NCBI GenBank assembly: GCA_034717985.1
Contig: JAYEMH010000007.1
Location: 1-49,955 of the forward strand
DNA length: 49,955 nt
Source: Candidatus Ratteibacteria bacterium
GTDB lineage: Bacteria; CAZDME01; JAYEMH01
Direction of reading: 5' to 3'
How positions within the stretch are numbered: the first letter of the stretch is position 1; every line of letters begins with the position of its first letter. The position numbers were made by a program, and so were the translations under genes. The notes under the pieces were generated by a model. It was not told the origin of the DNA, did not search any database, and was given only the letters and a program-made list of their open reading frames with translations. Shown here piece by piece: positions 1 through 49,374 of the stretch.

Positions 1-24
1 AAATTAAAAAATAGAGACAAGGAA

Positions 25-215
25 TTTTAGACAGGATTTACAGGATAAAAAAAATAACCACAGAGCTTATGAAGAATATCAAATGGAACCACAGGTGAAC
101 ACAGATGAACACCGAAGAAGAACTTTTTCATAAGGAGGTGCAGGGGGAAAATATAACAGTGTTTCCCTGTGTTAATCTGTGGTTTAAATAAAAATCCTGT
201 TAATCCCGTCAAAAA
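25..215. repeat. Nested inverted repeats built of 9-10-nt tandem units
   Basis: Outer arms 25-46 (ttttagacaggatttacaggat) and 194-215 match 19/22 as reverse complements. Inner arms 87-112 (aaccacaggtgaacacagatgaacac) and 159-184 match 21/26. Confidence 0.85.
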
Positions 216-34065: not shown

Positions 34066-35139
34066 ATGGTTAAGAAATTGGAACCACTTATCATCGGAGA
34101 TTTAGAGATAAAGATACCGATTATTCAAGGCGGTATGGGAGTTGAAATCTCTACGGCTTCTTTGGCTAGTGCAGTTGCGAATTGCGGTGCAGCGGGAACC
34201 ATCGCCAGCGTAGGTCTTGGTTATGGCACAGAAGAAAATGAAACCAATTTTGTTAAAGCCTCAAGAGAAGGACTTCAAAGGGAAATCCGTCAGGCTAAGA
34301 AATTGAGCCAGGGAGTTGTCGGTGTAAACATAATGGTAGCTTTGAGCAACTATGAGGATTTGGTGCGGACTACTGTAAAGGAGAAGACTGATTTCATTGT
34401 TTCGGGGGCGGGTTTACCTTTGAGACTGCCGGAATTTACCGGGGAAACCTCGATAAAGCTTATACCAATTGTTTCATCAGCGAGAGCAGCTAATATTATA
34501 ATCAAAACATGGAAGAAGCGTTACAATCGTTTGCCGGATGCCATTGTTGTGGAAGGTCCATTGGCAGGCGGGCACTTAGGATTTAAACTTGAAGATTTAG
34601 AACCGCATAAAGGGAATAGCTTAAAGAATTTAGTCGTAGATGTTTTAAAAGTGGTGGAGGGGTTCAAAAGCGAGCTGGGCATAAATATCCCGGTTATAGC
34701 CGCAGGAGGAATATTTGACGGAAAAGATGTTGCTGAATTCCTTAGATTGGGAGCGAAAGGTGTCCAGATAGCAACACGATTTGTTGCTACCTTCGAGTGT
34801 TCTGTAGCAGATAAATTTAAAGAGTTATATATTGCGGCCAGGGAAGAGGATGTTGTTATTATAAACAGCCCTGTCGGCATGCCGGGAAGGGTGGTAAGAA
34901 CTAAGTTTATTGATAGAATAATGCGTGGCGAAAGAATGCCGATTGAATGCAACTATCAATGCCTTAAGACGTGCGATCCCAACACTGCTCCTTACTGCAT
35001 AGCCCACGCCTTATTTAGCGCTGTAATCGGTGACCTGGATAATGCAGTTGTGTTTGCCGGAAGTAACGTTGCAAAGCTGAAAAGAATCGTATCCGTAAGA
35101 GAATTGATAAGTGATATTGTTGACGAAACCATCAGCTAG
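34066..35139 (+). CDS. Nitronate monooxygenase / FabK-like flavoprotein
   Basis: PIIQGGMGV, SGAGLP, EGPLAGGHLG, AAGGI and C..CL..C motifs. Confidence 0.88.
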   Translation: MVKKLEPLIIGDLEIKIPIIQGGMGVEISTASLASAVANCGAAGTIASVGLGYGTEENETNFVKASREGLQREIRQAKKLSQGVVGVNIMVALSNYEDLVRTTVKEKTDFIVSGAGLPLRLPEFTGETSIKLIPIVSSARAANIIIKTWKKRYNRLPDAIVVEGPLAGGHLGFKLEDLEPHKGNSLKNLVVDVLKVVEGFKSELGINIPVIAAGGIFDGKDVAEFLRLGAKGVQIATRFVATFECSVADKFKELYIAAREEDVVIINSPVGMPGRVVRTKFIDRIMRGERMPIECNYQCLKTCDPNTAPYCIAHALFSAVIGDLDNAVVFAGSNVAKLKRIVSVRELISDIVDETIS

Positions 35140-35140
35140 T

Positions 35141-35900
35141 AACTAATAACTAAGGACAGCGACTAGTTTTCTATTGATTTTGTGTTGTGGTATAGTAATA
35201 TAGGTTAATCATGCCAAGGATAGCAAGGGTTGTAATTCCAGGATACCCGCATCACATCACACAGCGAGGCAATTATAAACAGAAAACTTTTTCAGATGAT
35301 GTCGATTATGAACAATATTTGAAATGGTTGTCAAAATATTGTGTTGACTATAAGCTGTCTATTTTAGCGTATTGCCTTATGCTAAATCATGTACATTTGA
35401 TAGCGATTCCACACAAAGAAGATTCTTTAGCAAGAACATTCAATACATGTCATATGCGATATTCTCAATACTATAATACGAAGCAGAATCAGAAAGGGCA
35501 TCTTTGGCAGGGGAGGTTTTACTCATGTGTCTTAGATGAATATCATCTTTATGAAGCTATAAGATATGTTGAGAATAATCCGGTAAGGGCTAAGATAGCA
35601 AAGAAAGCAGAAAAGTGGAAATGGTCCAGCGCAAAGGCACATTTAAATAAAGGGAAAAGCATTTTAGAGTTAGAAAAAGCAGGCGATTATATAGCTGTAT
35701 CTGATTGGAAGCAGTATCTGGTGGAGAGAGAAGATGAAGCTGTAATAGATAAAATAAAATCTAATACATTAACCGGAAGGCCCTCAGGGAAAGATTTATT
35801 TGTGGGAAAAATAGAGAAAATGTTTGGTAAAAGGCTGAGGCCCTTACCAGAAGGAAGGCCTAGGAAAAGGAAAACTAGTCGCTGTCCCTAGTTTCTAGTT
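35141..35900 (+). mobile_element. RAYT element bounded by 31-bp inverted repeats
   Basis: 35141-35171 (aactaataactaaggacagcgactagttttc) and 35870-35900 (gaaaactagtcgctgtccctagtttctagtt) match 28/31 as reverse complements. Confidence 0.8.
35211..35891 (+). CDS. REP-associated tyrosine transposase (RAYT, Y1 HUH family)
   Basis: MPR.AR, HITQRGN, YCLM.NHVHL (HUH), GHLWQGRF and YVENNPVRA motifs. Confidence 0.92.
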   Translation: MPRIARVVIPGYPHHITQRGNYKQKTFSDDVDYEQYLKWLSKYCVDYKLSILAYCLMLNHVHLIAIPHKEDSLARTFNTCHMRYSQYYNTKQNQKGHLWQGRFYSCVLDEYHLYEAIRYVENNPVRAKIAKKAEKWKWSSAKAHLNKGKSILELEKAGDYIAVSDWKQYLVEREDEAVIDKIKSNTLTGRPSGKDLFVGKIEKMFGKRLRPLPEGRPRKRKTSRCP

Positions 35901-35920
35901 TACACATTATACAAAGTGCT

Positions 35921-35964
35921 GCCCCAATAGCTCAGCCCGGATAGAGCACAGGTTTCCTAAACCT
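35921..35964 (+). repeat. 5' fragment of tRNA-Arg(CCT), att-like copy 1
   Basis: 44 nt identical to 48605-48648, ending just after the anticodon loop. Confidence 0.93.
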
Positions 35965-36182
35965 AAATCTACCAATTCTCATTTCATCTTAATTGTCGTT
36001 TATCTTCCTATATTTCAAACAGTTCTGACAGGTTTTCATTCGCACCAATTATTACCAATTTATGCCAATTTGTCACCGCCATGGACACTATTTGGGCACC
36101 ATTTTAATGCTGATTTCGGCTTGGAATTATTTGGAATATTTGTCTTGACGTCATATTAAAGGAAGCGCAATAATATATATCT

Positions 36183-37748
36183 ATGAAAACTCTGCTTAAG
36201 TTTATTGTCTTAATTGAAATAATCGTCTTTTTCCCGCCTTTTGTTCTTGCCAATATATCAGGGGAGCAGGATGTCACGGTAACCTATTACCACGTTGAAG
36301 GCAATACCGGCAATTCCTTTTATCCGGAAAATAAAGTTACCTATCTTTATGAAGGTCAAGTCGATTTCACCCGTTCCTTTCTCAGTAAAGAGTTGTTCGG
36401 CTCAATGTCCTATCGGGTAACAGATGATCGGTTAGTGGATCTCCAGGATGTGAGTTTGGAGGAGTTTTTTATTGGATTAAGAAAGGATTCTTTTGAATTC
36501 TTGGCCGGAGATTTTTACAGCAGTTTTTCCGGCTATTCCGTGGACAACGCTTTAAAGGGACTCAGGTTAAATTTAGGGGAAGACGACTTAGCCCATTTTA
36601 AATTAGCGGCCGGGGTTGATACCTCAAGGTGGGAAAATTTATGGGAAACCCGCTGTGATGACTCTGACACCCGGAAATACGTTTGGGGATTCCAGTTAGG
36701 TAATAGTTTTTTTGATAAGGACCTCAAGTTAAATCTTAATTACGGAGGTTCTTTAGATGACAAGGCCTTTTTAAGTTCAGGCAGTCCGCAGGTGTTGGTT
36801 GATGTGGTAAGTCTGGATACCGCTTACCGGATTAATGATGTCTTGAGTTCTTCTTTTGAATTTGCCCATAGTTTTACCGATGCAGATAAGAACTTAGATG
36901 AAGTAAAGACAAAAAACGATTATGCCGGTAAGGCCGTCCTTGATTTAAACACCCGGAATTATTCTTTACTTTCTCTCTATTCCAGAATCGGTTCTAATTT
37001 TAATTCCACCAGTGGATTTACCGCCGCTGATTTAGAAACCATTTCTTTTGATGGTGCCTGGTATGCCCACAGGAACGTCAAGTTAACGCATTATCTGCAT
37101 TTAGACCGGGATAATTTAAGCGATCATCTCTACGTCACCACCCGCCAAATTAATCCGGGAGTAATCCTGGGGCTTTCTCTTCCCCGGGAGGTTAATTGTG
37201 ATATCGGATTTGATTCCAGAAAGAGGTATTCAACGGATAAATATACCAATGATGAGACACAAGCTTATTCGGTGAACCTGGGAAAAAATTTCCAGGTTTT
37301 CTACGGCAATATAGGGTATACCAGGACCGTAGTTAAAGATAAGGTTGACCTGGCCCAGGAGAGAGATGTTGATACTATCACTTTGGGGTTAGACGGGGAC
37401 TTTACCATAAGAGAGGTAATTTTTAGCTGGAATATCGCCGAGGATATAAATCACGAGGATTATAAAGAGGCCGGGAAGGCGGATTTATTTTTAACTCATT
37501 CTTTAGGGATGAGGGCGGATTTTCCTTCTGCTTTATCGATTGAAGCCAGGGTAAATCTCTCTGATAGTGATTACTATTCAAATTCCCTGGATAACAATAC
37601 CGCCAATTATGTATTTTCCATCTCCCGCTGTATAAAGGACAATTTGACCTTTAGTGTGAATTACGACTATAAGGATTATGCCTATCCTGACGGTGATGAC
37701 AACTATTCCGAAACGGTGATGACCGCAAAGGCAGCTGTTCGGTTTTAA
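36183..37748 (+). CDS. Putative outer-membrane beta-barrel protein
   Basis: Signal peptide, amphipathic strands rich in Y/F/D/S/N, and a C-terminal Phe (…AAVRF). Confidence 0.65.
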   Translation: MKTLLKFIVLIEIIVFFPPFVLANISGEQDVTVTYYHVEGNTGNSFYPENKVTYLYEGQVDFTRSFLSKELFGSMSYRVTDDRLVDLQDVSLEEFFIGLRKDSFEFLAGDFYSSFSGYSVDNALKGLRLNLGEDDLAHFKLAAGVDTSRWENLWETRCDDSDTRKYVWGFQLGNSFFDKDLKLNLNYGGSLDDKAFLSSGSPQVLVDVVSLDTAYRINDVLSSSFEFAHSFTDADKNLDEVKTKNDYAGKAVLDLNTRNYSLLSLYSRIGSNFNSTSGFTAADLETISFDGAWYAHRNVKLTHYLHLDRDNLSDHLYVTTRQINPGVILGLSLPREVNCDIGFDSRKRYSTDKYTNDETQAYSVNLGKNFQVFYGNIGYTRTVVKDKVDLAQERDVDTITLGLDGDFTIREVIFSWNIAEDINHEDYKEAGKADLFLTHSLGMRADFPSALSIEARVNLSDSDYYSNSLDNNTANYVFSISRCIKDNLTFSVNYDYKDYAYPDGDDNYSETVMTAKAAVRF

Positions 37749-37758
37749 GGGGGAATTA

Positions 37759-39453
37759 ATGATTAAGAAATTATTATTGGTGTTTTTAGCCATTTTTTTT
37801 ATTACGCCGTCTCTTTATGCGCAGAACACAGTCAGAATTAACGGCGAGACGGTAGAAGAAAACAGCGCTTTGAGTATTTTTAAAGATGAACTCACCGGGG
37901 GTAAAATCAGTTTTTTGTTTAAAACAGGGGAAGACATTGAAGGGGTGGAGATTTCTCTGGATAAAGGAAGAATCTGGCGGGAGATGAATGCCGCTGAAGG
38001 CGGTTTTTTGTATCAATACCGGCCTTTGTCTGATAAAGATTTATTCCTCTCGTTTCTTTTTAAAAACAAGGAAGGCACACTTAGGGCCTATAACACCTTT
38101 ATAAAGATTGCTTACCAGAAGAAGAGGCCGGAGGAGGCAATCTTAGCTCTTTTAGAAAAAATGGAGCGTTTTTATGAACAGGAGAATAAACAGCGATTTA
38201 TGCGTCTTTTTTCTTCTAAGTTTCCTAGCCGGATAAAATTCGAGCAGTCAATCCAGAATGATTTTTATAATTACAATAATATACGGCTTGACCGCCGGGT
38301 GGAGAGAAAGATTTTTTCTTCTGATTCAAAATCGGCCATCTGGGATGTCTATGTTGAAAGGAAATGTAATACCCGGACGGGCTCAAGCAAAGACGCTTCC
38401 GCCGTTATTGGCATGCGGATAGCCAACGAAAGCGGAAGCTGGAAAATCACCGGATTCAATAATAATACGGTTTTTGGCTCGTCTTTGTTAGCGGCTGAAG
38501 CGGATTTAACTGTTTCAAGTTCTGATATAAGTTTATCCGGGCCGACTGTTACAGTAACGGTACATAACAACGGGGATGCCATTGCCCGTAATGTCAAGGT
38601 AACCTTTTATCATAAATCCGGCGGGACCTGGGTTAAAGACGGCAACAAAACTATTTCTGTCATCAGGGAGAATTCTCGCGGGACCACCAGGTATAATTTT
38701 TCCTCTCTTTGCGGCATATATGACGTTAAAGTTGTTGTTGACCCGGCGAACGCTATTTCTGAAAGCAACGAAACCAATAACGAAGCGGAAAAAAGCATTA
38801 CTTTTTCACCCGAATTAACTATCGCCAGTTCAGATATAACTAATTCCGGGACCACGGTTAGTGCAGTCGTTCATAATAACGGAAGTGTTATCGCCCGCAG
38901 TGTCAAAGTGCAATTTTATCATAAATCCGGCGGAAGCTGGATTTCAGACGGGTATAACACTATTTCCAGCATCGGCGCTCAGTCCCAGGAAACTACCAGT
39001 TATAATTTTTCATCTCTTTCCGGGACATGTGATATCAAAATTGTCATTGACCCGAATAATACCATTCCTGAGACCAATGAGGACAATAACGAGGCAGAAA
39101 AGAGTATAACCTTTTCATCCACTCCTTTTCTTCCGGATTTAGCCATTTCCAGCTCTGATATCACTAAAACCGCCACCTATACCGTATCAGCGGTAGTGCA
39201 TAATAACGGCAGTGCTTCGGCAAGTAGTATTAAGGTAAAGTTTTATTATAAAGTTGGGGTGAACTGGGTCGCTCATGGTTCTGAAGAAACCATCGCTAGT
39301 ATCGCCGCCGGGGCTCAGGGAACGGCGACGCATGATTTTTCCTCTTTGGGCCCGGGGGCTCAAAATTTTAAGGTGGTAGTTGATCCGAGTAATGCAATTT
39401 CAGAAACAGACGAGACTAACAATGAAAGCACAAAAACACTTACTCTGGGCTAA
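37759..39453 (+). CDS. Secreted protein with an NTF2-like domain and three tandem CARDB domains
   Basis: Signal peptide and three ~103-aa repeats DL.ISSSDI...VHNNG...V.FY...VVVDP.N.I.E.NE.NN starting near 38503, 38812 and 39136. Confidence 0.85.
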   Translation: MIKKLLLVFLAIFFITPSLYAQNTVRINGETVEENSALSIFKDELTGGKISFLFKTGEDIEGVEISLDKGRIWREMNAAEGGFLYQYRPLSDKDLFLSFLFKNKEGTLRAYNTFIKIAYQKKRPEEAILALLEKMERFYEQENKQRFMRLFSSKFPSRIKFEQSIQNDFYNYNNIRLDRRVERKIFSSDSKSAIWDVYVERKCNTRTGSSKDASAVIGMRIANESGSWKITGFNNNTVFGSSLLAAEADLTVSSSDISLSGPTVTVTVHNNGDAIARNVKVTFYHKSGGTWVKDGNKTISVIRENSRGTTRYNFSSLCGIYDVKVVVDPANAISESNETNNEAEKSITFSPELTIASSDITNSGTTVSAVVHNNGSVIARSVKVQFYHKSGGSWISDGYNTISSIGAQSQETTSYNFSSLSGTCDIKIVIDPNNTIPETNEDNNEAEKSITFSSTPFLPDLAISSSDITKTATYTVSAVVHNNGSASASSIKVKFYYKVGVNWVAHGSEETIASIAAGAQGTATHDFSSLGPGAQNFKVVVDPSNAISETDETNNESTKTLTLG

Positions 39454-39871
39454 ATTAGCCCTTATCGGCTGGACATTTCTTTTGCTTGCCATGGCGCCTC
39501 CGGTGGTGACAGAAAAAGCAGCGTTAAAGGATATGGTTAAAGATCGCTTGCAGGAAATGGAAGTTGTCTATGCTTCCAGGGATTTTGAAGGATTTATAGC
39601 TCTTTTGGATAAAGATTTTGAACCTTTGGGAAATTTCAAGAATAGCCTGCAGGAAGAATTTTTAAATAGAAAATCATTGGAGCTAAAATTTATTGTGGAT
39701 AATATTTTGAAAGAAAAAGAAAAGATTTTAGTTAAACTCCACTGGTTTAAAAAATATACTGACCCTTCCGGAAAGTTCCTTAAGGTTAAAGGCGAATCGC
39801 AATTTGTGTTTTTCCGGGATTCTGAAGGACTAAAACTTCTCTCCATAAGAGGCGACAACCCGTTTTTTTAA
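39422..39871 (+). CDS. Hypothetical exported protein, NTF2-like
   Basis: Hydrophobic N-terminus. The Y...D..GF..LLDKDF segment resembles the YEQENK..FM.LFSSKF domain of the upstream gene. Confidence 0.6.
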   Translation: MKAQKHLLWAKLALIGWTFLLLAMAPPVVTEKAALKDMVKDRLQEMEVVYASRDFEGFIALLDKDFEPLGNFKNSLQEEFLNRKSLELKFIVDNILKEKEKILVKLHWFKKYTDPSGKFLKVKGESQFVFFRDSEGLKLLSIRGDNPFF

Positions 39872-39888
39872 ATTAAGAAAGGGTTATA

Positions 39889-42800
39889 ATGTTGTCTAAA
39901 AAAGCTCTTCGCAATAATTCACTCCTTTTCTTTACCATCCTCTTTATAGCGATATCGCTTCACAGTGAATGCCGGGCTGAAGAAGCGGCTAATTCTGGAA
40001 TTGTTCGTTTTATTGAAGGGCAAATCAACACCTCTGAAGGAACAAATCACAGCCGCTTATCTACCGATTTTATCGGCGGTATTTTAACGGGTTTAACAAC
40101 GCCGGCAATTAATGGACTTATGGAAAGCCTGAGCACACAGCCGGCTGCTACTCAGTCCTCAACTATTGAGCCGACTGCTTATACGGTTCAATATCCCGGG
40201 GTTTCTACCGGAGATTTGTCACAGGTAGTTATAGTAGGTGATGGTCCTCCTCCACAACCGGTAAATTCTCAACCCCAAGTGATGGTAGTTAATTCTATTC
40301 AGGAATTACCTCCCGGGACAATTGTCGTTCCTTATTCGCCTCCAAGTGTTAGTCAGGAGATAACAATGAGCCAGAGTCAAAGCAGTGTTCCCAGTCTGCC
40401 GATGGCTGAGGCGCAATTAGGCATCGGGTTAGGGCTTGATACCTTTTTTGTTCCGCCCAGAAGCCCCAACAGCCGGTTTGAAGCGGATATGAAGTTGACC
40501 TGGTCTTTTACCGAGGAAGAGCTTAACCAGTACAACACCCGTTTTAAAATGGGCGGTCTTACCCAGAGGCTTATTCCTATCGGCGCCGTAAGGTTGGAGA
40601 CAGATAGATCCCGGTTCGTGCGCGAAATCGGTTTCCACTGTGATATCGGCGTTGATTTAAAATGGAATGCTAATTGGCATAATAATGTCGCCGGGATTAA
40701 TCTTACTGATTTAGCCATGGAAATTAATGATGAAGATAGAGAAGGGCTGGGAGGGGGAGATGTTGACCATAGCGATTCTGTGAATCTGACGGATGTGCCG
40801 GGGATGGTTACCAGTTTAGTCGAAAAAGTGAGTGCTAAGTTAGCGGCGGGAGCGGCTGGCGGCGCGGCAAAAGAAGCAGGGGATACCTTAGCCGGGGAAA
40901 TATTTGATAAAATGGAGATTGGCGTTCTGGTAACCCAGATAACATCCGACCGGTATGTTACGATAACCTTTGATATTACCGCCGAGGATATGAGAGGTAA
41001 TGCGGTAAGTATTAACCTGGAGGAGGAGAATCCGATAAGATTTGACAGCGAGGGGGTGGACCATATTCTTTACGCCCGCATTCCGGATGGATGCCCGCCG
41101 CTTAAAAAAGTTACTTTAAGGGTGGTAGATGCGGTCTATCGTTATAATGAATCGGCCAATATTGAATTTGGTATAAGCGCTGAATATATTCCGGTTGAAG
41201 TTAGGACCGGTAAACTTACACAGGGAATAGGAGAATATTTCGCTAACGAGCATAACGCTCAAGTTCGGGATGAAGACAAGCCCAGCTTGACGGTTATAGG
41301 CGAGTCGTTAATTTATATCCCCTTTCATGGATTTGTTCAGGATAGCGCGGCTAACCCGTCTTTTGGCTTAGAGGGGGTAACAGTAAATATTTTTGCCAGG
41401 GATAATTCTTTCCATAAAACAGAATATACCCATCCAGACGGGCATTTTTACGGCGATTTCTATATTGCTTCGGCAGCCGGTACAGCGCCTCATTTTATTA
41501 CTGTTTCCAAGGAGGGATATGCGCCTAACTACACGGTTGATTTTATAAATGACCAGGAAGGTTTTATTATAAGTATGCTTAGACCGGCTCAAGATTATCT
41601 ATTTGTGTCCGGACAGGTACTGGATATGCAAAACAAACCGATACCGGGGGCTGAGGTTCATGTCTGCGGTGAGATGGATGTTTGGGCGGTGACAAACGCT
41701 CAGGGTAGATTCAGTTTTGACGTGGTTCGAGGGGGAAGCATTACTATTTCGGCAGGTAAAACGGGCTATCATTTTCCTTTGGTAACTAAAAGCACCGCTT
41801 GTTCTGAAGAAAGGATAAACGTTGATTTAAAGGCGAATATTCAGCCGCCACCGGGATATATAAAATTATTATTTGAAGCAGAGAGTCAATCTTTGCCGCC
41901 GATGATTAACATAAAACGCCCCGGCAGCGCCGCATTTTCCGTTGACTTGGCAAGCGATAGGACGCTAACTATTGGAGCTCTTAGCGCCCGGGAATTTTTA
42001 ACTTTGGGAGCCTTTGGTTATAACCTTAATCCTTCCCAGATCGAAGCGCAATTTTCCGACGACAAACTGGGTGAGGAAAAAGAGTTTAATATCACCGCTA
42101 CGCCTGTATGGGCAAAATCTATTGCTCTTTCTCCTCCTTCGGTATCTATTGAAACCGGCGGAATAAATTTTGATGATAAAAGGACAGAAGAACAAGCTGA
42201 ACTTATAGCCGTGGTAGAATATGCCCGGGGACAAACGAAAAAATCAGGGGTGCCGGTTAGGTTTGAAATGGTGGAAAGAGAAGGGAATGCAGCCGTTAAA
42301 TTTTCCCGGGAAGGATTAATGCCCGGATGCGGTTATGGAATGACTGATGATAACGGAGAGGTAAAAATAGGTGTTTTGGCCTATAATACCCTGGGCAATG
42401 TTAAGATAAAAGCCGTCGCCCTTGATAAGTCTCTTGTAACCGGTTTAGAAGAGGATGAGCTATCAAGTAATGCCATAAATGTGACAATTATTCCTTCAAC
42501 GCGCATTACCCAGACAGCAAAACCGACCGCTTCGGTAACCGCTATGGCCAACAAGAAGTGGCTTTCGGGTGCCGGTGTCCGAATAGAAAAAGGAGGAGAA
42601 ATACTTTTCCAGTTTTCAGCCGCGCCGGGGCAGACCGGGGCGCCGCCTCTTTATGCTTCCGGAATACTGAACGGTTTTAAACTAAGTTTTTCTAAAGATA
42701 ACGGGCCCTGGCAGGATGAGATGTATGAGACTACTCCCTGGGCGACAGCCAGGAGAACATTTTCCGAAAAAGGTGATTATAAAGTTGGTTTTCAGGTAAG

Positions 42801-45174
42801 GGAAAATTACGCCGGAGAGAATATCTGGTCGGACCGGGCCGAGGCGCCTTTTCAGGTAATTGAATTTATCCGGCCGGTAGTGAGTTTAACTATCCCTAAT
42901 ACAACGGGCATAGTGAATATGCCGCTGGATTACTCTTTTGAGGCAACTGCCCCGGCAACTTTGGAAAATATCACTTTGGAATTCGGAGATAATAAGCTGG
43001 ATATAGATATTGACCGCGGTATATTAAGCGGCAAGACACACTGGTCGGGCAGTCATTACCATCTATATTCCCATGAGGGGACTTATCAGTTAAAACTGAA
43101 AGCAGTAGATGTGAATAATAAGCAAGCTGAGGTAACTAAAACTGTTACCATTCAGCCGCTATCGGCTTTAAATGATGATACCGCGCCTACCGGAACTTTG
43201 ACTATTAATGGCGGCGCTCAAAGCGCTGGAGAGATGAATGTGGTTTTACATATTGAGGGCAGCGACGGAGCCGATGGCTCCGGCATATTCAAGCTTAGAA
43301 TTTCTAATGACGGCGCAAACTGGAATGCCTGGCAGGCGGTAGATTTTGCCAATGACCGGCCTTATCGGGATATATCAACAGACCGGGCCTGGCAGCTTGC
43401 CGGAGAAAGCGGCACTAAGACTGTATATGTGCAGTTGAAAGATGCGGCGGAAAATGTTTCTAACAATATTTATGCCTCAATTCAAATTGAAGCGGCGAGT
43501 ATCCAGGTGTCCGGAAGTTTAGCGCCGCCTTCGGTGGTTGATCCTAATTTTCCTAATGCTTCACCTCCTTACGGCAGTATTTCGGTTTCAGAAAGAGCCG
43601 GAAATGTAATTACTCTTGTTTTACAAGCTTCTAATGCCCGGGCATCAATTTTGGTTGACCGGATGGCTTTTTCGTTCGACGGAACCAACTGGACCGGCTG
43701 GATGCCTTTTAGTGATGTAAAACAGATTTCTTTGATTGGACATGAAACAGAAAATAAAATTTATGTAACTTTTGCCGATATTGCCGGCGGACAAAGCCCG
43801 GTTTATTCTGCCGATATACCGCCGGGCGCCGCTCAGCCGCCAGCAGCTGATATTGAAGCTGATATTCAAGAAGAGATTACTCCGGATTCAGAAGAAGCAG
43901 GTGTTTCTCCTGCGCCGGCAACTACCAGTGTCGGCGCAGGCAGCGAGCAGCAGCAAATAGGTGAAGACAGAAAAGTCTCGGCCCTAAGGCGGCGGTTAAG
44001 CGATTTAAGAGCCGCAAGGGCTAAAAAAAGAAGTGTTTTACCGCCGGTTGTCCCGCAGGGAGAAAGAAGAATAGAAGAAGAGACAAGACCGGAGATAGAG
44101 CCTGTTGATCTTTCAATAGAAGGTATAAAAGTTCCGCGGGAAATTCTGATAAATCAAGCATCAAGCATAGAGGTAAAAGTAAAGAATTACTCTGTTGTTG
44201 ATATAGGGGAATGCCGGGTGTTTTTTGAAACAGAGGATGGTTATAAAGATAAGAAACGAATATCTCTCCGGGGGAGGGAACAGAAAAGGCTGAGATTTTC
44301 CTGGACACCCCAGAGAGACGGCCGGCAGAAAATTGCTGTTTCTATTGAATGCAGAGAAGATACGAATTCCAGAAACAACCAGAAATTTCAAATCATCGAG
44401 GTAAAAAAAGAAGAACCGGTTGATGTTTCGATAGGAAATATGAGATGTCCCCGGGAAATACCGGTAAATCAAAAAGCCGACATAGAGGTAAAGGTAAAAA
44501 ATGAATCAGGCGTAGATATTAGAGAATGCTGGGTGCTGTTTGAAACAGAGGATGGTTACCGGGATAAGAAACGAATATTTCTCCGGGGGAGGGGACGGGA
44601 AAGGGTAAGATTTTCCTGGACGCCCCGGAAAGACGGCCGGCAGAAAGTGACTGCTTCTATTGAATGCAGAGAAGACAAAAATCCTCGCAACAACAGGGTT
44701 TCTCAAATAGTTGAAGTAAAAAAAGTGGAAAGAGATGTTGTTAGATCAAGAACGGCAGAAAAAAAGAAAAGAGATGTAATTAGACCAAGGATGGCAGAAA
44801 AAAAGAAAATTAAAAAAACAGAAAAAGAAAGAAAAATAGAAATACCGCGCTTACAAATTCGAAAATTATTTTTAACCGACGAAAGAAACAATGTCTTAAA
44901 AGCCGGACAGTCTTTAATTATTGGCTTGGAAATAGAATCGTCTTCTTCTTTTGATGAGTCTCTGGAGGTTAATTTTGTATTAGAGGGTAAAGAAGGCGGC
45001 AGGAAAACATTTAACGAAAAGATAAAGGGATTAAAAAATGGCCCAAATTCTTTTAAATGGGAACTTTTGAAAGAATTGAAGCCAGACAGATATAGCCTAT
45101 CGGTAGAAGTGCGAAATAGGCTGTTTAACATAAGGGAGAAGCGAAACAAAGAGTTTGAGGTTGTGAACAAATAA
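39889..45174 (+). CDS. Large secreted multidomain surface protein (carboxypeptidase-regulatory-like, Ig/PKD-like and CARDB-like domains)
   Basis: 1761 aa with signal peptide. VSGQVLD...PIPGAEV, H.Y..EGTY and AP.G...INGGA...V.V...D.A.N modules. Tandem 105-aa repeat at 44098-44727. Confidence 0.8.
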   Translation: MLSKKALRNNSLLFFTILFIAISLHSECRAEEAANSGIVRFIEGQINTSEGTNHSRLSTDFIGGILTGLTTPAINGLMESLSTQPAATQSSTIEPTAYTVQYPGVSTGDLSQVVIVGDGPPPQPVNSQPQVMVVNSIQELPPGTIVVPYSPPSVSQEITMSQSQSSVPSLPMAEAQLGIGLGLDTFFVPPRSPNSRFEADMKLTWSFTEEELNQYNTRFKMGGLTQRLIPIGAVRLETDRSRFVREIGFHCDIGVDLKWNANWHNNVAGINLTDLAMEINDEDREGLGGGDVDHSDSVNLTDVPGMVTSLVEKVSAKLAAGAAGGAAKEAGDTLAGEIFDKMEIGVLVTQITSDRYVTITFDITAEDMRGNAVSINLEEENPIRFDSEGVDHILYARIPDGCPPLKKVTLRVVDAVYRYNESANIEFGISAEYIPVEVRTGKLTQGIGEYFANEHNAQVRDEDKPSLTVIGESLIYIPFHGFVQDSAANPSFGLEGVTVNIFARDNSFHKTEYTHPDGHFYGDFYIASAAGTAPHFITVSKEGYAPNYTVDFINDQEGFIISMLRPAQDYLFVSGQVLDMQNKPIPGAEVHVCGEMDVWAVTNAQGRFSFDVVRGGSITISAGKTGYHFPLVTKSTACSEERINVDLKANIQPPPGYIKLLFEAESQSLPPMINIKRPGSAAFSVDLASDRTLTIGALSAREFLTLGAFGYNLNPSQIEAQFSDDKLGEEKEFNITATPVWAKSIALSPPSVSIETGGINFDDKRTEEQAELIAVVEYARGQTKKSGVPVRFEMVEREGNAAVKFSREGLMPGCGYGMTDDNGEVKIGVLAYNTLGNVKIKAVALDKSLVTGLEEDELSSNAINVTIIPSTRITQTAKPTASVTAMANKKWLSGAGVRIEKGGEILFQFSAAPGQTGAPPLYASGILNGFKLSFSKDNGPWQDEMYETTPWATARRTFSEKGDYKVGFQVRENYAGENIWSDRAEAPFQVIEFIRPVVSLTIPNTTGIVNMPLDYSFEATAPATLENITLEFGDNKLDIDIDRGILSGKTHWSGSHYHLYSHEGTYQLKLKAVDVNNKQAEVTKTVTIQPLSALNDDTAPTGTLTINGGAQSAGEMNVVLHIEGSDGADGSGIFKLRISNDGANWNAWQAVDFANDRPYRDISTDRAWQLAGESGTKTVYVQLKDAAENVSNNIYASIQIEAASIQVSGSLAPPSVVDPNFPNASPPYGSISVSERAGNVITLVLQASNARASILVDRMAFSFDGTNWTGWMPFSDVKQISLIGHETENKIYVTFADIAGGQSPVYSADIPPGAAQPPAADIEADIQEEITPDSEEAGVSPAPATTSVGAGSEQQQIGEDRKVSALRRRLSDLRAARAKKRSVLPPVVPQGERRIEEETRPEIEPVDLSIEGIKVPREILINQASSIEVKVKNYSVVDIGECRVFFETEDGYKDKKRISLRGREQKRLRFSWTPQRDGRQKIAVSIECREDTNSRNNQKFQIIEVKKEEPVDVSIGNMRCPREIPVNQKADIEVKVKNESGVDIRECWVLFETEDGYRDKKRIFLRGRGRERVRFSWTPRKDGRQKVTASIECREDKNPRNNRVSQIVEVKKVERDVVRSRTAEKKKRDVIRPRMAEKKKIKKTEKERKIEIPRLQIRKLFLTDERNNVLKAGQSLIIGLEIESSSSFDESLEVNFVLEGKEGGRKTFNEKIKGLKNGPNSFKWELLKELKPDRYSLSVEVRNRLFNIREKRNKEFEVVNK

Positions 45175-45217
45175 ATAAAGGGACAACACATCCCAATATT
45201 TTCTGTATCCTAATGAG

Positions 45218-45246
45218 AAATCTCCATACAAAAATGGAGGTTTTTG
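45218..45246 (+). terminator. Putative intrinsic terminator
   Basis: aaatctccat-acaaaa-atggaggttt hairpin followed by a T-run, downstream of the four-gene operon. Confidence 0.55.
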
Positions 45247-45265
45247 TTTAATGGTCAAATTCCTT

Positions 45266-45383
45266 CTTTACACCCCTTACTAAACTTGCTATAATTTCCA
45301 TTAAGCATTACACCTACACAGTACACTTTATGTTTTACCTGCCCCAATAGCTCAGCCCGGATAGAGCACAGGTTTCCTAAACC
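45266..45383 (+). repeat. 118-bp exact repeat: 75-bp promoter-bearing cassette end plus tRNA-Arg(CCT) 5' fragment copy 2 (45341-45383)
   Basis: Identical to 48530-48647. Contains TTTACA-17bp-TATAAT with TG extension. Confidence 0.93.
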
Positions 45384-45591
45384 GAAACCTGCCTAATCTC
45401 ATTTGAACTCAAACCCCGTCTAATTCCTTTCATTTCAAGCACTTCTGACAGGTTTTCATTCGTACTAATTATTACCAATTTATGCCAATTTGTCTCCGCC
45501 GTGGACACTATTTGGACACCAAGAAGTTTAAGCCAATTAAGCCAATTATAATCACTTGCAAATGCTTTTCTTTAATGCTATACTTTTTTTC

Positions 45592-46206
45592 ATGAAGATC
45601 TATATAGTAGTGTTTATGACATTACTGTTATCTTTATTCGGTTGGAGCGATGGATATACTTTATCTAAAAACATGAACACCGTTTCAGTAAATACAAGTT
45701 CAATAAATAGAACATTTGAAGATTTAACTCTTGGAATGACTGAAAATGAGTTAAAATCGAAATTAGTTTATTTTGGCCCTTCGTCAAGGTCCTGGTTGCT
45801 TCATAATGAATATTCAGTGTACTCTGTTTATTATAACATCTACATAGCAAATGAAAACCCAAGGATGGGTAAAATCACACCGAAAATGAAAGAGATTGAA
45901 AATGTTTATGCAGTTTATTGTAGTTTTTATGAAAACAAACTTTTTAGAATTAAAATAGTGTATAGAAATGCATATCAACTTCCTTGGGGCGATTTTATTT
46001 TTAATGCAAAACAAAAATATGGACCTGGCAAGAAAATGATAGATGGTGTTACATGGAACGATGGAATGACAACCTTGATTATTACCCAAAAACATGGCAA
46101 GCAATTCGAAAATGATTATGGAAAACATTATGAGGTATTCTATATAGACAATAAGCAATTTTCTAAAATGAATGAAAAGATGAAGGAGGAATCACCACAA
46201 TTGTAA
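45592..46206 (+). CDS. Hypothetical exported protein
   Basis: Signal-peptide-like MKIYIVVFMTLLLSLFG. Promoter TTGCAA-17-TATACT at 45556-45584. Confidence 0.65.
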   Translation: MKIYIVVFMTLLLSLFGWSDGYTLSKNMNTVSVNTSSINRTFEDLTLGMTENELKSKLVYFGPSSRSWLLHNEYSVYSVYYNIYIANENPRMGKITPKMKEIENVYAVYCSFYENKLFRIKIVYRNAYQLPWGDFIFNAKQKYGPGKKMIDGVTWNDGMTTLIITQKHGKQFENDYGKHYEVFYIDNKQFSKMNEKMKEESPQL

Positions 46207-46257
46207 AAGGTAAATTACAGAGTATAAAGATAATAGATTTTTTGCTCAAAATTGGAT

Positions 46258-46658
46258 AGTATAAACTACTTCCCTTGTCAAGACCAAAGTTAAGGTAATT
46301 TAAGGTGGGAAATTTTATTTTCCGGAGCGTGAAATTTAATCCCTGAATAAACCTCCCACGGCGTCTGATAGTCCAACGACTGATGTAACCGTTCTGTGTT
46401 GTAACGATTAAAATATGTTTTCAAGCCTCCCCGGACATCCGTTATGGTCTCATACCCCTGGACATAAATATTGTCATATTTGACTGTTCTCCAGAGACGT
46501 TCAATGAAAATATTGTCGAATACCCTGCCCCGTTCATCCATACCGATCCGGATCCTGTTATTCAAAAGTTTTTGCGTAAAGTCTTTCGATGTAAATTGTG
46601 TTCCTTGATCCGAATTGAATATTTCCGGCTTTCCATAGTACAGGAACAAGGTGTCCAC
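46258..46658 (-). pseudogene. Truncated IS3-family transposase (C-terminal DDE core, 46290-46658) with the probable IS end
   Basis: PEIFNSDQGTQFTS, DNIFIERLWRTVKY and YNTERLHQSLDYQTP motifs. The N-terminal part is missing. Confidence 0.88.
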
Positions 46659-46835
46659 CTTTTGTTGGCAAATGTGGTTTAAAGGTATATACTAATGTTA
46701 AAAATAGGGGTGAGTTTCAAAGGGGAAACCTACGTCGACTGGAAAATAAGTAAAACTTTCGCTTAAAAGGTGGAGGTTTTTTGTTTATTGAGGTTTAGAA
46801 TTTGAAAAAGCAGAGAAAAAGAGGAGGTAGAAGCG

Positions 46836-47036
46836 ATGAATAAAAATAAGGAGGCAAGATTAATACGAATATATGTAGAAGATCGTAAGACAAAACCTAG
46901 ATTATTTGTAGACCCCCCACCTTCGTTAAAAGGACGATTCACCCAAAAATACCCGCGTGGGTTTGCATGTTGGAGTAACACAGAAAAAGTGAAAATTGCA
47001 ATTGAAGATATAGTTAAATGGCTAAATGAAAAATAA
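46836..47036 (+). CDS. Small hypothetical protein (66 aa)
   Basis: Strong RBS GAGGAGG before the ATG. No recognisable motif. Confidence 0.5.
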   Translation: MNKNKEARLIRIYVEDRKTKPRLFVDPPPSLKGRFTQKYPRGFACWSNTEKVKIAIEDIVKWLNEK

Positions 47037-47346
47037 TCAAATTGTTTCACTGCGGCTTTAAAAATAGGGACTAAAATAGGGACACCTATGTATGCTATTT
47101 ACAAAACCAATGGGTTATCAAAGAAGGTAGTCTGTGCAAAGTTTGCATATACTGCCGAATGAAAACAGGAACACATCCCAAACACATCCCTAATAATACT
47201 TGACATAACTTATATATTATAGTAAACTATATTATAGGAAATACTATAATGTAAACCTCGTTAGAGATAGAAAATACCATTGAAATAAAACATTGCTTTA
47301 TTTTGGTATCTCTAACGGGGCAAATATATATACGGGGAGGATCAAA

Positions 47347-48471
47347 ATGACCAATCCTTTCAAATTTGGAGAAGCTGTTACCGGAGACTGTTTTGCTGAC
47401 AGAGAGAAGGAAAGCAAGGATATCATTGAGTATATAAAAGCCGGCCAGAATTTATTTATTTATTCATATAGACGATTAGGAAAAACTTCGCTTATTATGA
47501 ATATAATAAAATCTTTGCAGATTAAAAAAGAAGTTATGCCTATATATGTAGATATTCAAAAAGTGACCTCACAAGCGCAGTTTATTGAAGTTTATGCCAG
47601 TGCTATTAGCAGAGCCTTATTCAACTGGAAGGAAAAATTAGAGAAAATATCAAATTTTTTCAGGAAGATTGTTCCCAGTTTTGAAATTGACCGGCAGGGG
47701 GTCTGGAAAATATCTTTTGATTTTTCCAAAACCAAAGCTAACATCGCGAAATCTTTAGAGGAAGTTTTCGAGATGCCGCAAAAGCTCGCCTTTTCTTATA
47801 AGAAGAAAATAGCAGTAATATTTGATGAATTTCAAGAGATAGAAAATCTAAACGGAAAGTCTTTTGAAAAAAGAATCCGTTCTTTTATTCAACACCATAA
47901 TAAAGTTTGCTATATATTTATGGGCAGCAAGACACATATGATTATGGATATGTTTAACAATCCCCAAAGGGCATTTTATAAATCTGGCGCAGTTTATCCT
48001 ATTTCTGTAATTGATAAAACCGAGATGGCACAATTTGTCTATAGACGCTTTTGCGGTTCTGGAAAGCATATTACCAAGAAACTATCAGAAGCGATAGTAA
48101 AAATGGCCGGTGACATTCCGTATAATATTCAGCTGTTGTCGTTTAACGTTTGGTTGTTGGCAAAAAAGAGTGTAACCAAGAAAGATATCTCAAAGGCAGT
48201 AGATACAATAATGCATACTCAGAACGAGTTCTTTTTTAATATTTATGATTCAGCAAGTCTTCATCAAAGGTCGGTATTGTATGCTCTTTCCCAGACGGGA
48301 GAGCTCTTTTCACAAGATACTATTCTGAAATATAATTTAGGTACAAGTTCCTCTGTCCAGGCATCTCTGAAATCCCTGGTTAAAGAAACAGTAGTGCATA
48401 AAGATGAAACAAAATATTATATAGGGGATCCCTTTTTTGAGTTATGGCTCCAGAGGAATATTTCTACATAA
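47347..48471 (+). CDS. AAA-family (archaeal ATPase-like) ATP-binding protein with C-terminal winged helix
   Basis: NPF.FG..V....F.DRE.E, Walker A RRLGKTS, Walker B IFDEFQ, C-terminal DPFF..WL. Start set at ATG 47347. Confidence 0.85.
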   Translation: MTNPFKFGEAVTGDCFADREKESKDIIEYIKAGQNLFIYSYRRLGKTSLIMNIIKSLQIKKEVMPIYVDIQKVTSQAQFIEVYASAISRALFNWKEKLEKISNFFRKIVPSFEIDRQGVWKISFDFSKTKANIAKSLEEVFEMPQKLAFSYKKKIAVIFDEFQEIENLNGKSFEKRIRSFIQHHNKVCYIFMGSKTHMIMDMFNNPQRAFYKSGAVYPISVIDKTEMAQFVYRRFCGSGKHITKKLSEAIVKMAGDIPYNIQLLSFNVWLLAKKSVTKKDISKAVDTIMHTQNEFFFNIYDSASLHQRSVLYALSQTGELFSQDTILKYNLGTSSSVQASLKSLVKETVVHKDETKYYIGDPFFELWLQRNIST

Positions 48472-48530
48472 TGAAAGTTTTTCAAACAGGCGGTTTAATA
48501 ACACTTATGGAGAAGTATAGATATCTTACC

Positions 48531-48559
48531 TTTACACCCCTTACTAAACTTGCTATAAT
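48531..48559 (+). promoter_or_regulatory. Cassette-supplied sigma70 promoter of the intact tRNA-Arg(CCT)
   Basis: TTTACA-17bp-TATAAT with extended TG, about 45 bp upstream of the tRNA. Confidence 0.75.
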
Positions 48560-48604
48560 TTCCATTAAGCATTACACCTACACAGTACACTTTATGTTTT
48601 ACCT

Positions 48605-48682
48605 GCCCCAATAGCTCAGCCCGGATAGAGCACAGGTTTCCTAAACCTGGTGTCGATCGTTCGAATCGGTCTTGGGGCACCA
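48605..48682 (+). tRNA. tRNA-Arg(CCT)
   Basis: Acceptor stem gccccaa/ttggggc, anticodon arm caggt-ttCCTaa-acctg, T-loop ttcgaat, CCA end. Confidence 0.95.
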
Positions 48683-48714
48683 CTGTAACCACGGATGAAC
48701 ACGGAGAAAATATA

Positions 48715-49374
48715 ATGATTGATTTGCATACGCACTCTTTACTTAGCGATGGAGAACTTCTGCCTTCGGAGTTAGTTGCCCGGGCGGTCAAAAAAGGCTA
48801 TCGAGCTATCGCCATTACCGACCACGTTGATACCTCCAATTTTGAATGGGTGATTAAAAATGTGGTGCGGGTTTGCGGAGTGCTCAATAAAAGCCAGAAG
48901 GTTAAAGTCATTCCCGGGGCTGAAGTGACTTATGTTGCCCCGGATTTACTGGCAGGTTTTGTAAAAGAAGTTAGGGCAATGGGGGCAAAAATAATTGTTG
49001 TCCATGGCGAAACGATTGTTGAGTCGGTTTTCCCCGGCACCAACCGCCGGGCGATAGAAGCCGGTGTTGATATCTTGGCCCACCCCGGATTAATTTCCCT
49101 GGAAGACGCCCAATTAGCAAGTCGGAATAATGTTTATTTAGAAATTTCTACCCGCAAGGGCCACTGTTATACTAACGGGCATGTGCTTAGTATGGCCAGG
49201 CAAGCCGGGGCAAAATTGGTTCTTGATACGGATACCCATCAGCCCGGTGATTTGGTAACGATTGAAAAAGCCGGAGCGATTGCCCGGGGAGCCGGTTTAA
49301 CCGAGGAAGAAATTAAAACTATGCGGGTAGATACGGAAGAGTTGATAAAGAAAATCGAAAGGAGGCAGGTATGA
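48715..49374 (+). CDS. PHP-domain protein (histidinol phosphate phosphatase-like)
   Basis: DLHTHS..SDG, AITDH, VHGET, LAHPG and DTDTH motifs. Confidence 0.88.
   Translation: MIDLHTHSLLSDGELLPSELVARAVKKGYRAIAITDHVDTSNFEWVIKNVVRVCGVLNKSQKVKVIPGAEVTYVAPDLLAGFVKEVRAMGAKIIVVHGETIVESVFPGTNRRAIEAGVDILAHPGLISLEDAQLASRNNVYLEISTRKGHCYTNGHVLSMARQAGAKLVLDTDTHQPGDLVTIEKAGAIARGAGLTEEEIKTMRVDTEELIKKIERRQV

Follow-up and report, generated by a model that had tools for sequence, protein, structure and literature searches.

Integrase-less units that are flanked by attachment (att) sites, and that accrete at such sites, are known from the integrative and conjugative elements (ICEs) of streptococci as cis-mobilisable elements (CIMEs). 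For islands that carry an integrase, the Islander database gives a total of 3919, with 3760 leaving a 3' fragment of the target tRNA gene and 159 a 5' fragment, and its description allows for sites centred on the anticodon as well as for arrays in tandem (Hudson, Lau and Williams 2015, PMC4383910). On these published figures the 5'-half arrangement is a rare but documented minority. In Prochlorococcus, the tycheposons are described to integrate serially at tRNA genes, where partial tRNAs and degenerated material accumulate (bioRxiv 10.1101/2020.12.28.424599). Here we analyse a tRNA-Arg(CCT) locus on contig JAYEMH010000007.1 of Candidatus Ratteibacteria bacterium (assembly GCA_034717985.1), whose 49,955 nucleotides are called the window below. 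Two cassettes without an integrase are stacked upstream of the tRNA gene, each preceded by a displaced copy of the tRNA 5' half. The anatomy of the locus, and its homology to autonomous elements in other genomes, are directly observed; with moderate confidence, we read it as a tandem of two integrase-less derivatives of tyrosine-integrase islands of the 5' type, integrated at the anticodon loop and now probably immobile.

The cassettes resemble CIMEs in lacking a recombination module and in being stacked where related autonomous elements integrate; they would also share the flanking att sites if the right side, which has no arm motif, counts as one. CIMEs, however, occupy the 3' ends of tRNAs or protein-coding genes in Firmicutes and are linked to conjugative elements, whereas the present units replace a tRNA 5' half, supply a promoter and lack one arm site, and the genome contains no helper. 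With tycheposons the locus shares the serial integration at one tRNA, which displaces older elements, and the integrase-less degenerated material beside the tRNA; it differs in the integrase family and the hosts, and the available parts of that account do not mention conserved arm motifs or a promoter-bearing 5' replacement (10.1101/2020.12.28.424599).

Anatomy of the locus

The source genome is metagenome-assembled, with 1.01 Mb in 49 contigs and a completeness of 88%. In the following, G numbers denote the genomes compared (the source genome being G000), L numbers loci and C numbers contigs, and the window is contig C7. From left to right, the locus has these features:

35921-35964, + strand: copy A of the displaced tRNA-Arg(CCT) 5' half, matching the gene over 44 nt
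35965-36101, + strand: L end of cassette 1 (L1), read as an attL arm, with direct repeats and a 22-nt motif at 36079-36100
36183-45174, + strand: cargo 1
45266-45340, + strand: R end of cassette 1 (R1), with a promoter-like site at 45267-45295 and a leader
45341-45383, + strand: copy B of the displaced tRNA-Arg(CCT) 5' half, 43 nt long
45384-45521, + strand: L end of cassette 2 (L2), with the 22-nt motif at 45499-45520
45556-48471, mixed strands: cargo 2
48530-48604, + strand: R end of cassette 2, identical to R1, with a promoter-like site at 48531-48559
48605-48682, + strand: intact tRNA-Arg(CCT), called by ARAGORN

The first 43 nt of the tRNA gene occur in three exact copies in the window (35921, 45341 and 48605), all on the + strand, with a chance expectation of 0.00 in 100 shuffles. 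The match extends over 44 nt in copy A and 43 nt in copy B, and in both displaced copies the identity ends 3-4 nt beyond the anticodon loop. Like the 5'-fragment islands of Islander (PMC4383910), the locus thus combines an intact tDNA with co-oriented 5' fragments on the correct side (35921 and 45341, upstream of 48605), a crossover at a recognised sublocation, the anticodon loop, with identity ending at tRNA nt 43/44, and a tandem arrangement. As that database is described, an integrase gene is required in every island and array member, and neither cassette has one inside.

The two L ends (35965-36101 and 45385-45521) align without gaps and are identical at 112 of 137 positions, to which the distal part contributes 83/90 and the proximal part 29/47, while the R ends (45266-45340 and 48530-48604) are identical at all 75. 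Together with the tRNA 5' half, the R end forms a repeat of 118 nt with 100% identity in a repeat search. Similarity is at background just beyond the ends, with 17/60 positions upstream of R and 12/60 past L, and the repeat search shows nothing shared between the two cargoes beyond these limits. L1 carries three CCAATT(T) direct repeats with 10-nt spacing, at 36045, 36055 and 36065, followed by the 22-nt motif, and in the source genome the L end is present at these two places only. A preliminary description of the locus, made from the sequence alone, had claimed the duplicated tRNA 5' half, the colinear L ends, the identical R ends with TTTACA-17-TATAAT and the unrelated cargoes; its layout, coordinates and figures are all reproduced by ARAGORN, the repeat search and the alignments.

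Each R end begins exactly at TTTACA-17-TATAAT, with a TG extension. The two promoter-like sites score 11/12 and are two of the three best + strand matches in 35100-48800. A scan of this region detects 54 sites versus 32.1 ± 6.0 in shuffles, and since such sites are common here, a consensus match alone is weak evidence of a promoter. The R end of cassette 2 is likely the working promoter of tRNA-Arg(CCT), and the putative promoter of R1 now points into copy B, L2 and cargo 2. In addition, the 14 nt upstream of copy A (TTTACACATTATAC) match the sequence upstream of the native tRNA in G002, a genome of the same family, at 13 of 14 positions by eye, and the R end matches the sequence upstream of copy A at 13/60. 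Copy A is probably the original host 5' half, and the promoter appears to have arrived with the element, since the R end is unlike the sequence upstream of copy A, which resembles the native one of G002.

The 22-nt motif and the autonomous relatives

The motif that terminates the L end is CCRTGGACACTATTTGGRCACC. It is found exactly in four stretches of a species-level genome collection and in five metagenome contigs; at up to three mismatches, 20 of 401 genomes sampled have it, with 28 matches against 9 for a reversed-pattern control. In the source genome a search allowing five substitutions returns two copies only, both in the L ends. At many of the loci in other genomes, the motif closes an L-end-like stretch after the 5' half of a tRNA, which belongs to various tRNAs:

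checked against the intact gene of the same genome: Arg-CCT in G219, Lys-TTT in G295, Thr-CGT in G154
by eye only: Leu-TAA in G039, Arg-CCG in G219, Ser-CGA at L052, and a Sec-like half at L036

The stretch ahead of the motif varies between elements and regularly contains 2-4 short direct repeats with a spacing of 10-11 nt. From the end of the tRNA identity to the motif we count 117 and 118 nt in the two cassettes, compared with 118 nt in G219, 121 in G154, 130 in G315 and 132 in G161, so that both have an L arm ending in the motif at the distance of about 117-132 nt seen in the clade. On the whole, the standard ends supposed in the preliminary description are supported: the L-end motif occurs with other cargoes in distant genomes.

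Among viral contigs there is no exact match, and a relaxed pattern gives four. In one of these, viral contig L103, two variants of the motif flank a tRNA 3' fragment beside an integrase, which is supportive, although it represents a different sub-type. Viral contig L104 has dense GGACAC words in both orientations around the motif (about 1750-2030), with an iteron- or operator-like look. A near-match in G061:C55 was judged to be a chance occurrence, and an Rfam scan of 20 related loci detects only tRNAs near the motif. Limited full-text searches, which cannot match the prime sign, found no description of a 22-nt motif over the 3' end of an integrase; they returned no papers on 5'-half tRNA integration either, which under the same limit is no evidence of absence.

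The 3' end of a tyrosine integrase ORF carries the motif in G219, G315, G161 and (by eye) G397, and the first three integrases score 130-134 bits for Phage_integrase in Pfam. The G219 integrase stops 12 nt before a co-oriented tRNA-Arg(CCT), with the motif core 53 nt from the tRNA, and this integrase-side distance is 53-62 nt in G219, G315 and G161. In both G315 and G161, the integrase is convergent with a tRNA-Leu(GAG) and faces its 3' end; at the far end of these elements, a tRNA 3' half precedes an L arm with the motif. The identity boundaries of these 3'-half duplicators (nt 32-87 in G315, nt 35-87 in G161) mirror those of the 5'-half duplicators (nt 1-44 in G219, nt 1-38 in G154). In complete elements, two copies of the motif in direct orientation flank the tRNA-derived core. 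By eye, the reading frame of the integrase across the motif varies between loci, which indicates that the conserved entity is a DNA site and not a peptide. Because the motif flanks the core at fixed distances in complete relatives, and because the integrase gene ends over one of its copies, we regard it as a candidate protein-binding site, most likely of the arm type.

Homologues of the G219 integrase at E <= 1e-40 are detected in 43 of 401 genomes. We examined 27 of the 30 loci returned, leaving out the partial matches L125, L129 and L131, with the following result:

9 of 27, 5'-type: co-oriented tRNA 15-156 nt past the integrase 3' end (Arg-CCT in G219 and G152; Thr-CGT in G154; Ser-TGA in G102 and G331; Leu-TAA in G344 and G364; Arg-CCG in G101; Leu-TAG in G304)
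13 of 27, 3'-type: integrase convergent with a tRNA 46-146 nt away
2 of 27: tRNA about 1 kb from the integrase
2 of 27: no tRNA by the integrase
1 of 27: the C5 integrase of the source genome, with the tRNA before its start

Most of the homologues closest to the G219 integrase are among the nine 5'-type loci, whose identities are 41-61% except for G364 (36%). When up to 4 mismatches in 18 positions are allowed, the motif is present at the integrase end in 5/9 of the 5'-type loci and 2/13 of the 3'-type loci.

What the cassettes lack

Neither cassette encodes a site-specific recombinase. Among nine ORFs scanned with Pfam the sole relevant match is an IS3-type rve_3 fragment (46290-46658, - strand). 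The source genome has four PF00589 matches, none of them on C7, and one broken PF00239 match, on C12, and tblastn with three related integrases reaches at best 26 bits, with no remnant of the clade integrase in either cassette. The Pfam, PF00589, PF00239 and tblastn results all agree with the absence claimed earlier. L1 itself was tried as an integrase remnant and rejected, the similarity of its translation (YANLSPPWTLFGH) to the tail of an integrase in tblastn (E 0.017, 26 bits) being too weak and explained by the shared motif.

Of the four tyrosine recombinases of the source genome, two are Xer-like in size, one is an integron integrase on C3 and one belongs to an island on C5. This last island (C5:108-7813, locus L033) is a classical one of 7.6 kb, with a tRNA-Ser(CGA), then a 342-aa integrase, and a 20-nt repeat of the tRNA 3' end at C5:108-127. 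Its integrase (C5:6562-7590) was considered as the cognate enzyme and is 36-39% identical to the clade, but was rejected for its classical layout at tRNA-Ser(CGA) and the lack of the motif there. The autonomous integrase-bearing element predicted in the preliminary description does exist in other genomes; in the 88%-complete source assembly, however, neither the PF00589 search, the motif search nor tblastn found a cognate integrase.

Both R ends consist of the 75-nt leader only: the second motif, located in the clade where the integrase gene ends, at 53-62 nt from the tRNA, is absent from both cassettes. The attL arm is complete, and the right side has the core and the leader without an arm motif, the autonomous relatives being present only in other genomes. 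Since the R ends lack the second motif copy present in those relatives, the cassettes miss one att arm, and this makes the predicted excision in trans doubtful.

Relatives show comparable states. In G152 a broken integrase lies beside tRNA-Arg(CCT), and G178 has a scar in which a degenerate 5' fragment is followed by the motif, 55 nt and the tRNA. G295 contains an integrase-less unit between two motif copies, whose cargo is by eye dapF and an aminotransferase, and the motif locus of G039 has AbiE as cargo. In G046, two tRNA-Arg(CCT) 5' halves are stacked 4.7 kb apart, with homologous L ends that form a family of their own, and no recombinase is found among the 10 ORFs scanned there; a gene for a group II intron reverse transcriptase/maturase is located about 1 kb upstream of the first displaced half (G046:C76, L031, 5230-6513). 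The states of G152, G178, G295 and G046 are read as stages of decay.

Origin of the stack

A circular element would carry an attP of about 255 nt, made up of the R leader with its promoter, tRNA nt 1-43, and the L arm ending in the 22-nt motif. A crossover in the anticodon loop would push the resident 5' half, and anything upstream of it, leftward, and would join the promoter and 5' half of the element to the 3' half of the host gene. The stack would result from two crossovers of this kind, or from a single one together with homologous recombination within the 118-nt block, after which the cassettes would have kept the attL arm and the promoter-bearing leader, with the integrase and the integrase-side motif gone. 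Serial integration at the anticodon loop in this manner would explain the order of the parts and the displaced halves. The cassettes are now probably immobile relics, or at best mobilisable by an incoming related element.

Several observations weigh against this reading. The R end with the 5' half is identical at 118/118 positions while the L ends are 82% identical, which is not what independent integrations would predict; to account for the mismatch, gene conversion, a shared source population or a Campbell-type homologous insertion through the 118-nt block may be needed. Both R ends diverge exactly where the integrase-side motif would start, and because they end at the same base, two independent random deletions are not expected, so that serial integration alone leaves the shared right-hand boundary of both integrase losses unexplained. 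Neither cassette retains an integrase remnant in the tblastn search, and the integrase is presumed, from the position of the motif, to bind it. Autonomous 5'-type elements with both ends identified are limited to G219 and G154, in each of which the two ends lie on different contigs. Besides, the window comes from a metagenome-assembled genome. Among assembled contigs of four public runs, those of X2, a small run from another study, match both flanks at 99% identity (from 33000 to about 35960 on the left, from 48282 on the right), with no depth on 36396-48281 and no contig joining across, and are uninformative on an empty site; public run X1 yields scattered pieces at 90-99%, without junctions.

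The preliminary description took the cassettes for active, non-autonomous units that lack an integrase by design, are moved by an integrase in trans and stack upstream of the tRNA as a platform. We find this unlikely, even though other integrase-less units combine this kind of L end with unrelated cargo (G295, G046, G039), the homology of both ends breaks off abruptly where a module the size of an attP would end, and integrases of the right clade and for the right tRNA exist elsewhere, those of G219 and G152 using tRNA-Arg(CCT). The source genome has yielded no cognate integrase, the R ends are without the motif that marks the integrase-side arm in complete relatives, the broken integrase of G152 and the scar of G178 point to decay, and a relic of an insertion sequence (IS) lies inside cassette 2.

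Another account needs a single integrase event, with the second block of R end and 5' half added by RecA-type recombination in the 118-nt homology, either by Campbell-type insertion of a sister-strain circle or by gene conversion; the stack would then not record two site-specific integrations. The perfect identity of this block beside L ends with 112/137, and the abrupt end of the identity on both sides, would fit, yet L2 is a complete, colinear att arm with its motif 118 nt from the core, which implies that the incoming DNA was itself an att-bearing element, and 118 nt is a short substrate for homologous recombination; we consider the account improbable. An assembly artefact, in which two strains with one cassette each were joined through the 118-nt repeat, is very improbable despite the 49-contig metagenome bin and the different GC of cassette 2, since similar stacks occur independently in G046 and contig ends overlap by exactly 127 nt, suggesting k = 127, so that the path from cargo 1 through the R end and 5' half to L2 probably rests on real spanning words longer than the repeat. 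Perfect 127-nt repeats placed 227 nt apart are also present inside contigs (C2:14690/14917, C3:8461/8688 and C3:18202/18429); these and the overlaps at contig ends are probably traces of the assembler at k = 127. Two integrase-less derivatives of 5'-type islands remain our preferred reading.

Comparison with integrons

Like an integron array, the locus has co-oriented, promoterless-looking cargo stacked by a fixed promoter site, with the integrase outside the cassettes. Unlike integron cassettes, those described here are 3-9 kb long, contain several genes, and are bounded by tRNA halves and att arms, not attC. The source genome does have an integron integrase (C3:478-1797, + strand, locus L032), full-length and with 430 bits for TIGR02249 against a cut-off of 265. 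It has about 105 extra N-terminal residues and is notable in a 1-Mb genome; as it lies 477 nt from the contig start, the attI and cassette side of that integron is cut off. We rejected a link between this enzyme and the cassettes, as it is on another contig, with no physical or comparative connection, and 0/5 other genomes with such cassettes have an integron integrase above the family cut-off. With intI elsewhere and tRNA halves as boundaries (attC sites were not searched with a model), the integron-style array of the preliminary description is reduced to an analogy. A broader proposal would be that the integrase clade, whose genes read into tRNA genes, maintains tRNA-anchored arrays of integrase-less cassettes, each a minimal attP plus cargo (surface protein, toxin-antitoxin or defence-like) moved in trans, with the R end driving the tRNA and the next cassette. 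We give it little credence; if true, such arrays would be a functional analogue of the integron built on anticodon-loop att sites.

Cargo genes and chromosomal context

The cargo genes are as follows:

cargo 1, 36183-45174, + strand: a 521-aa secreted protein of no family; a 564-aa protein with three CARDB domains; a possible 163-aa ORF; a 1761-aa surface protein (CarboxypepD_reg, CARDB)
cargo 2, 45556-48471: a 216-aa ORF (+ strand); an IS3-type transposase relic, 46290-46658 (- strand); a 392-aa ATPase_2/AAA protein, 47293-48471 (+ strand)

Among 41 genomes searched, the 521-aa protein is present only in the source genome itself. The 564-aa and 1761-aa genes are repetitive (38503-39158 and 44097-44797): the former has internal repeats of 309-324 nt, corresponding to CARDB units, and the latter repeats of 315 and 39 nt near its 3' end. 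Cargo 2 has a GC content of 0.33-0.36 versus 0.42-0.46 in the flanks. PADLOC gives one weak match for the cargo, to the ATPase_2/AAA protein. The IS3-family relic of cassette 2 comprises rve_3 and rve fragments over 46290-47050 (- strand), and contigs of two public runs break at 46262-46316.

In G001 and G002, both of the same family as the source genome, tRNA-Arg(CCT) is followed by the same PHP-domain and lipoprotein genes, with no cassettes, and the PHP-domain gene downstream of the tRNA is syntenic with these relatives. Upstream of the tRNA they have apt, which in the source genome is on contig C17, followed by a REP-like sequence and smc; in the relatives smc comes after lgt. In the source genome, lgt precedes a gene for which the query used gave no match in G001 or G002, and after it come a REP-associated gene and copy A. 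This last gene, outside the cassettes, is:

35211-35891, + strand, within 35141-35900: REP-associated tyrosine transposase-like gene, between 31-nt inverted repeats

The REP-associated region ends 20 nt before copy A, and a similar GTCCCTAGTTT-type sequence is present at the apt/smc joint (C17:34360-34540). As the neighbours of lgt, smc, apt and tRNA-Arg(CCT) are swapped with respect to G001 and G002, the left edge of the stack is also, by gene order, a rearrangement junction, with REP-like sequence on both new joints, and the swapped partners suggest a REP-associated rearrangement. A simple reciprocal exchange at these joints would split a circular chromosome. The genome has, besides, an intergenic repeat family of 60-130 nt with a TTTCTGACAGGATTTACAGGAT core (C4:1845-4450, more than 30 other places, and window 1-51), which often precedes prepilin-like genes and in which many contigs end. 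The L ends share the word TTCTGACAGG with this abundant family.

Implications

The locus combines known features, and its cassettes are pared-down relatives of mobile elements that target tRNAs and whose type is uncommon, though widespread. New here is the 22-nt motif, which in the genomes compared recurs by the 5' halves of other tRNAs and appears twice in autonomous relatives. As a candidate arm site for the clade it is testable, and it offers a search handle for both arms of such elements. The locus illustrates how islands that replace a 5' half keep the tRNA alive by bringing their own promoter and leader, and how they look after the integrase is lost. Tools that require an integrase, such as Islander as described (PMC4383910), discard such units by design. 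Because of this, integrase-less stacks at the 5' side of tRNAs may be an under-counted source of strain-specific surface and defence-like genes in uncultured bacteria with small genomes.

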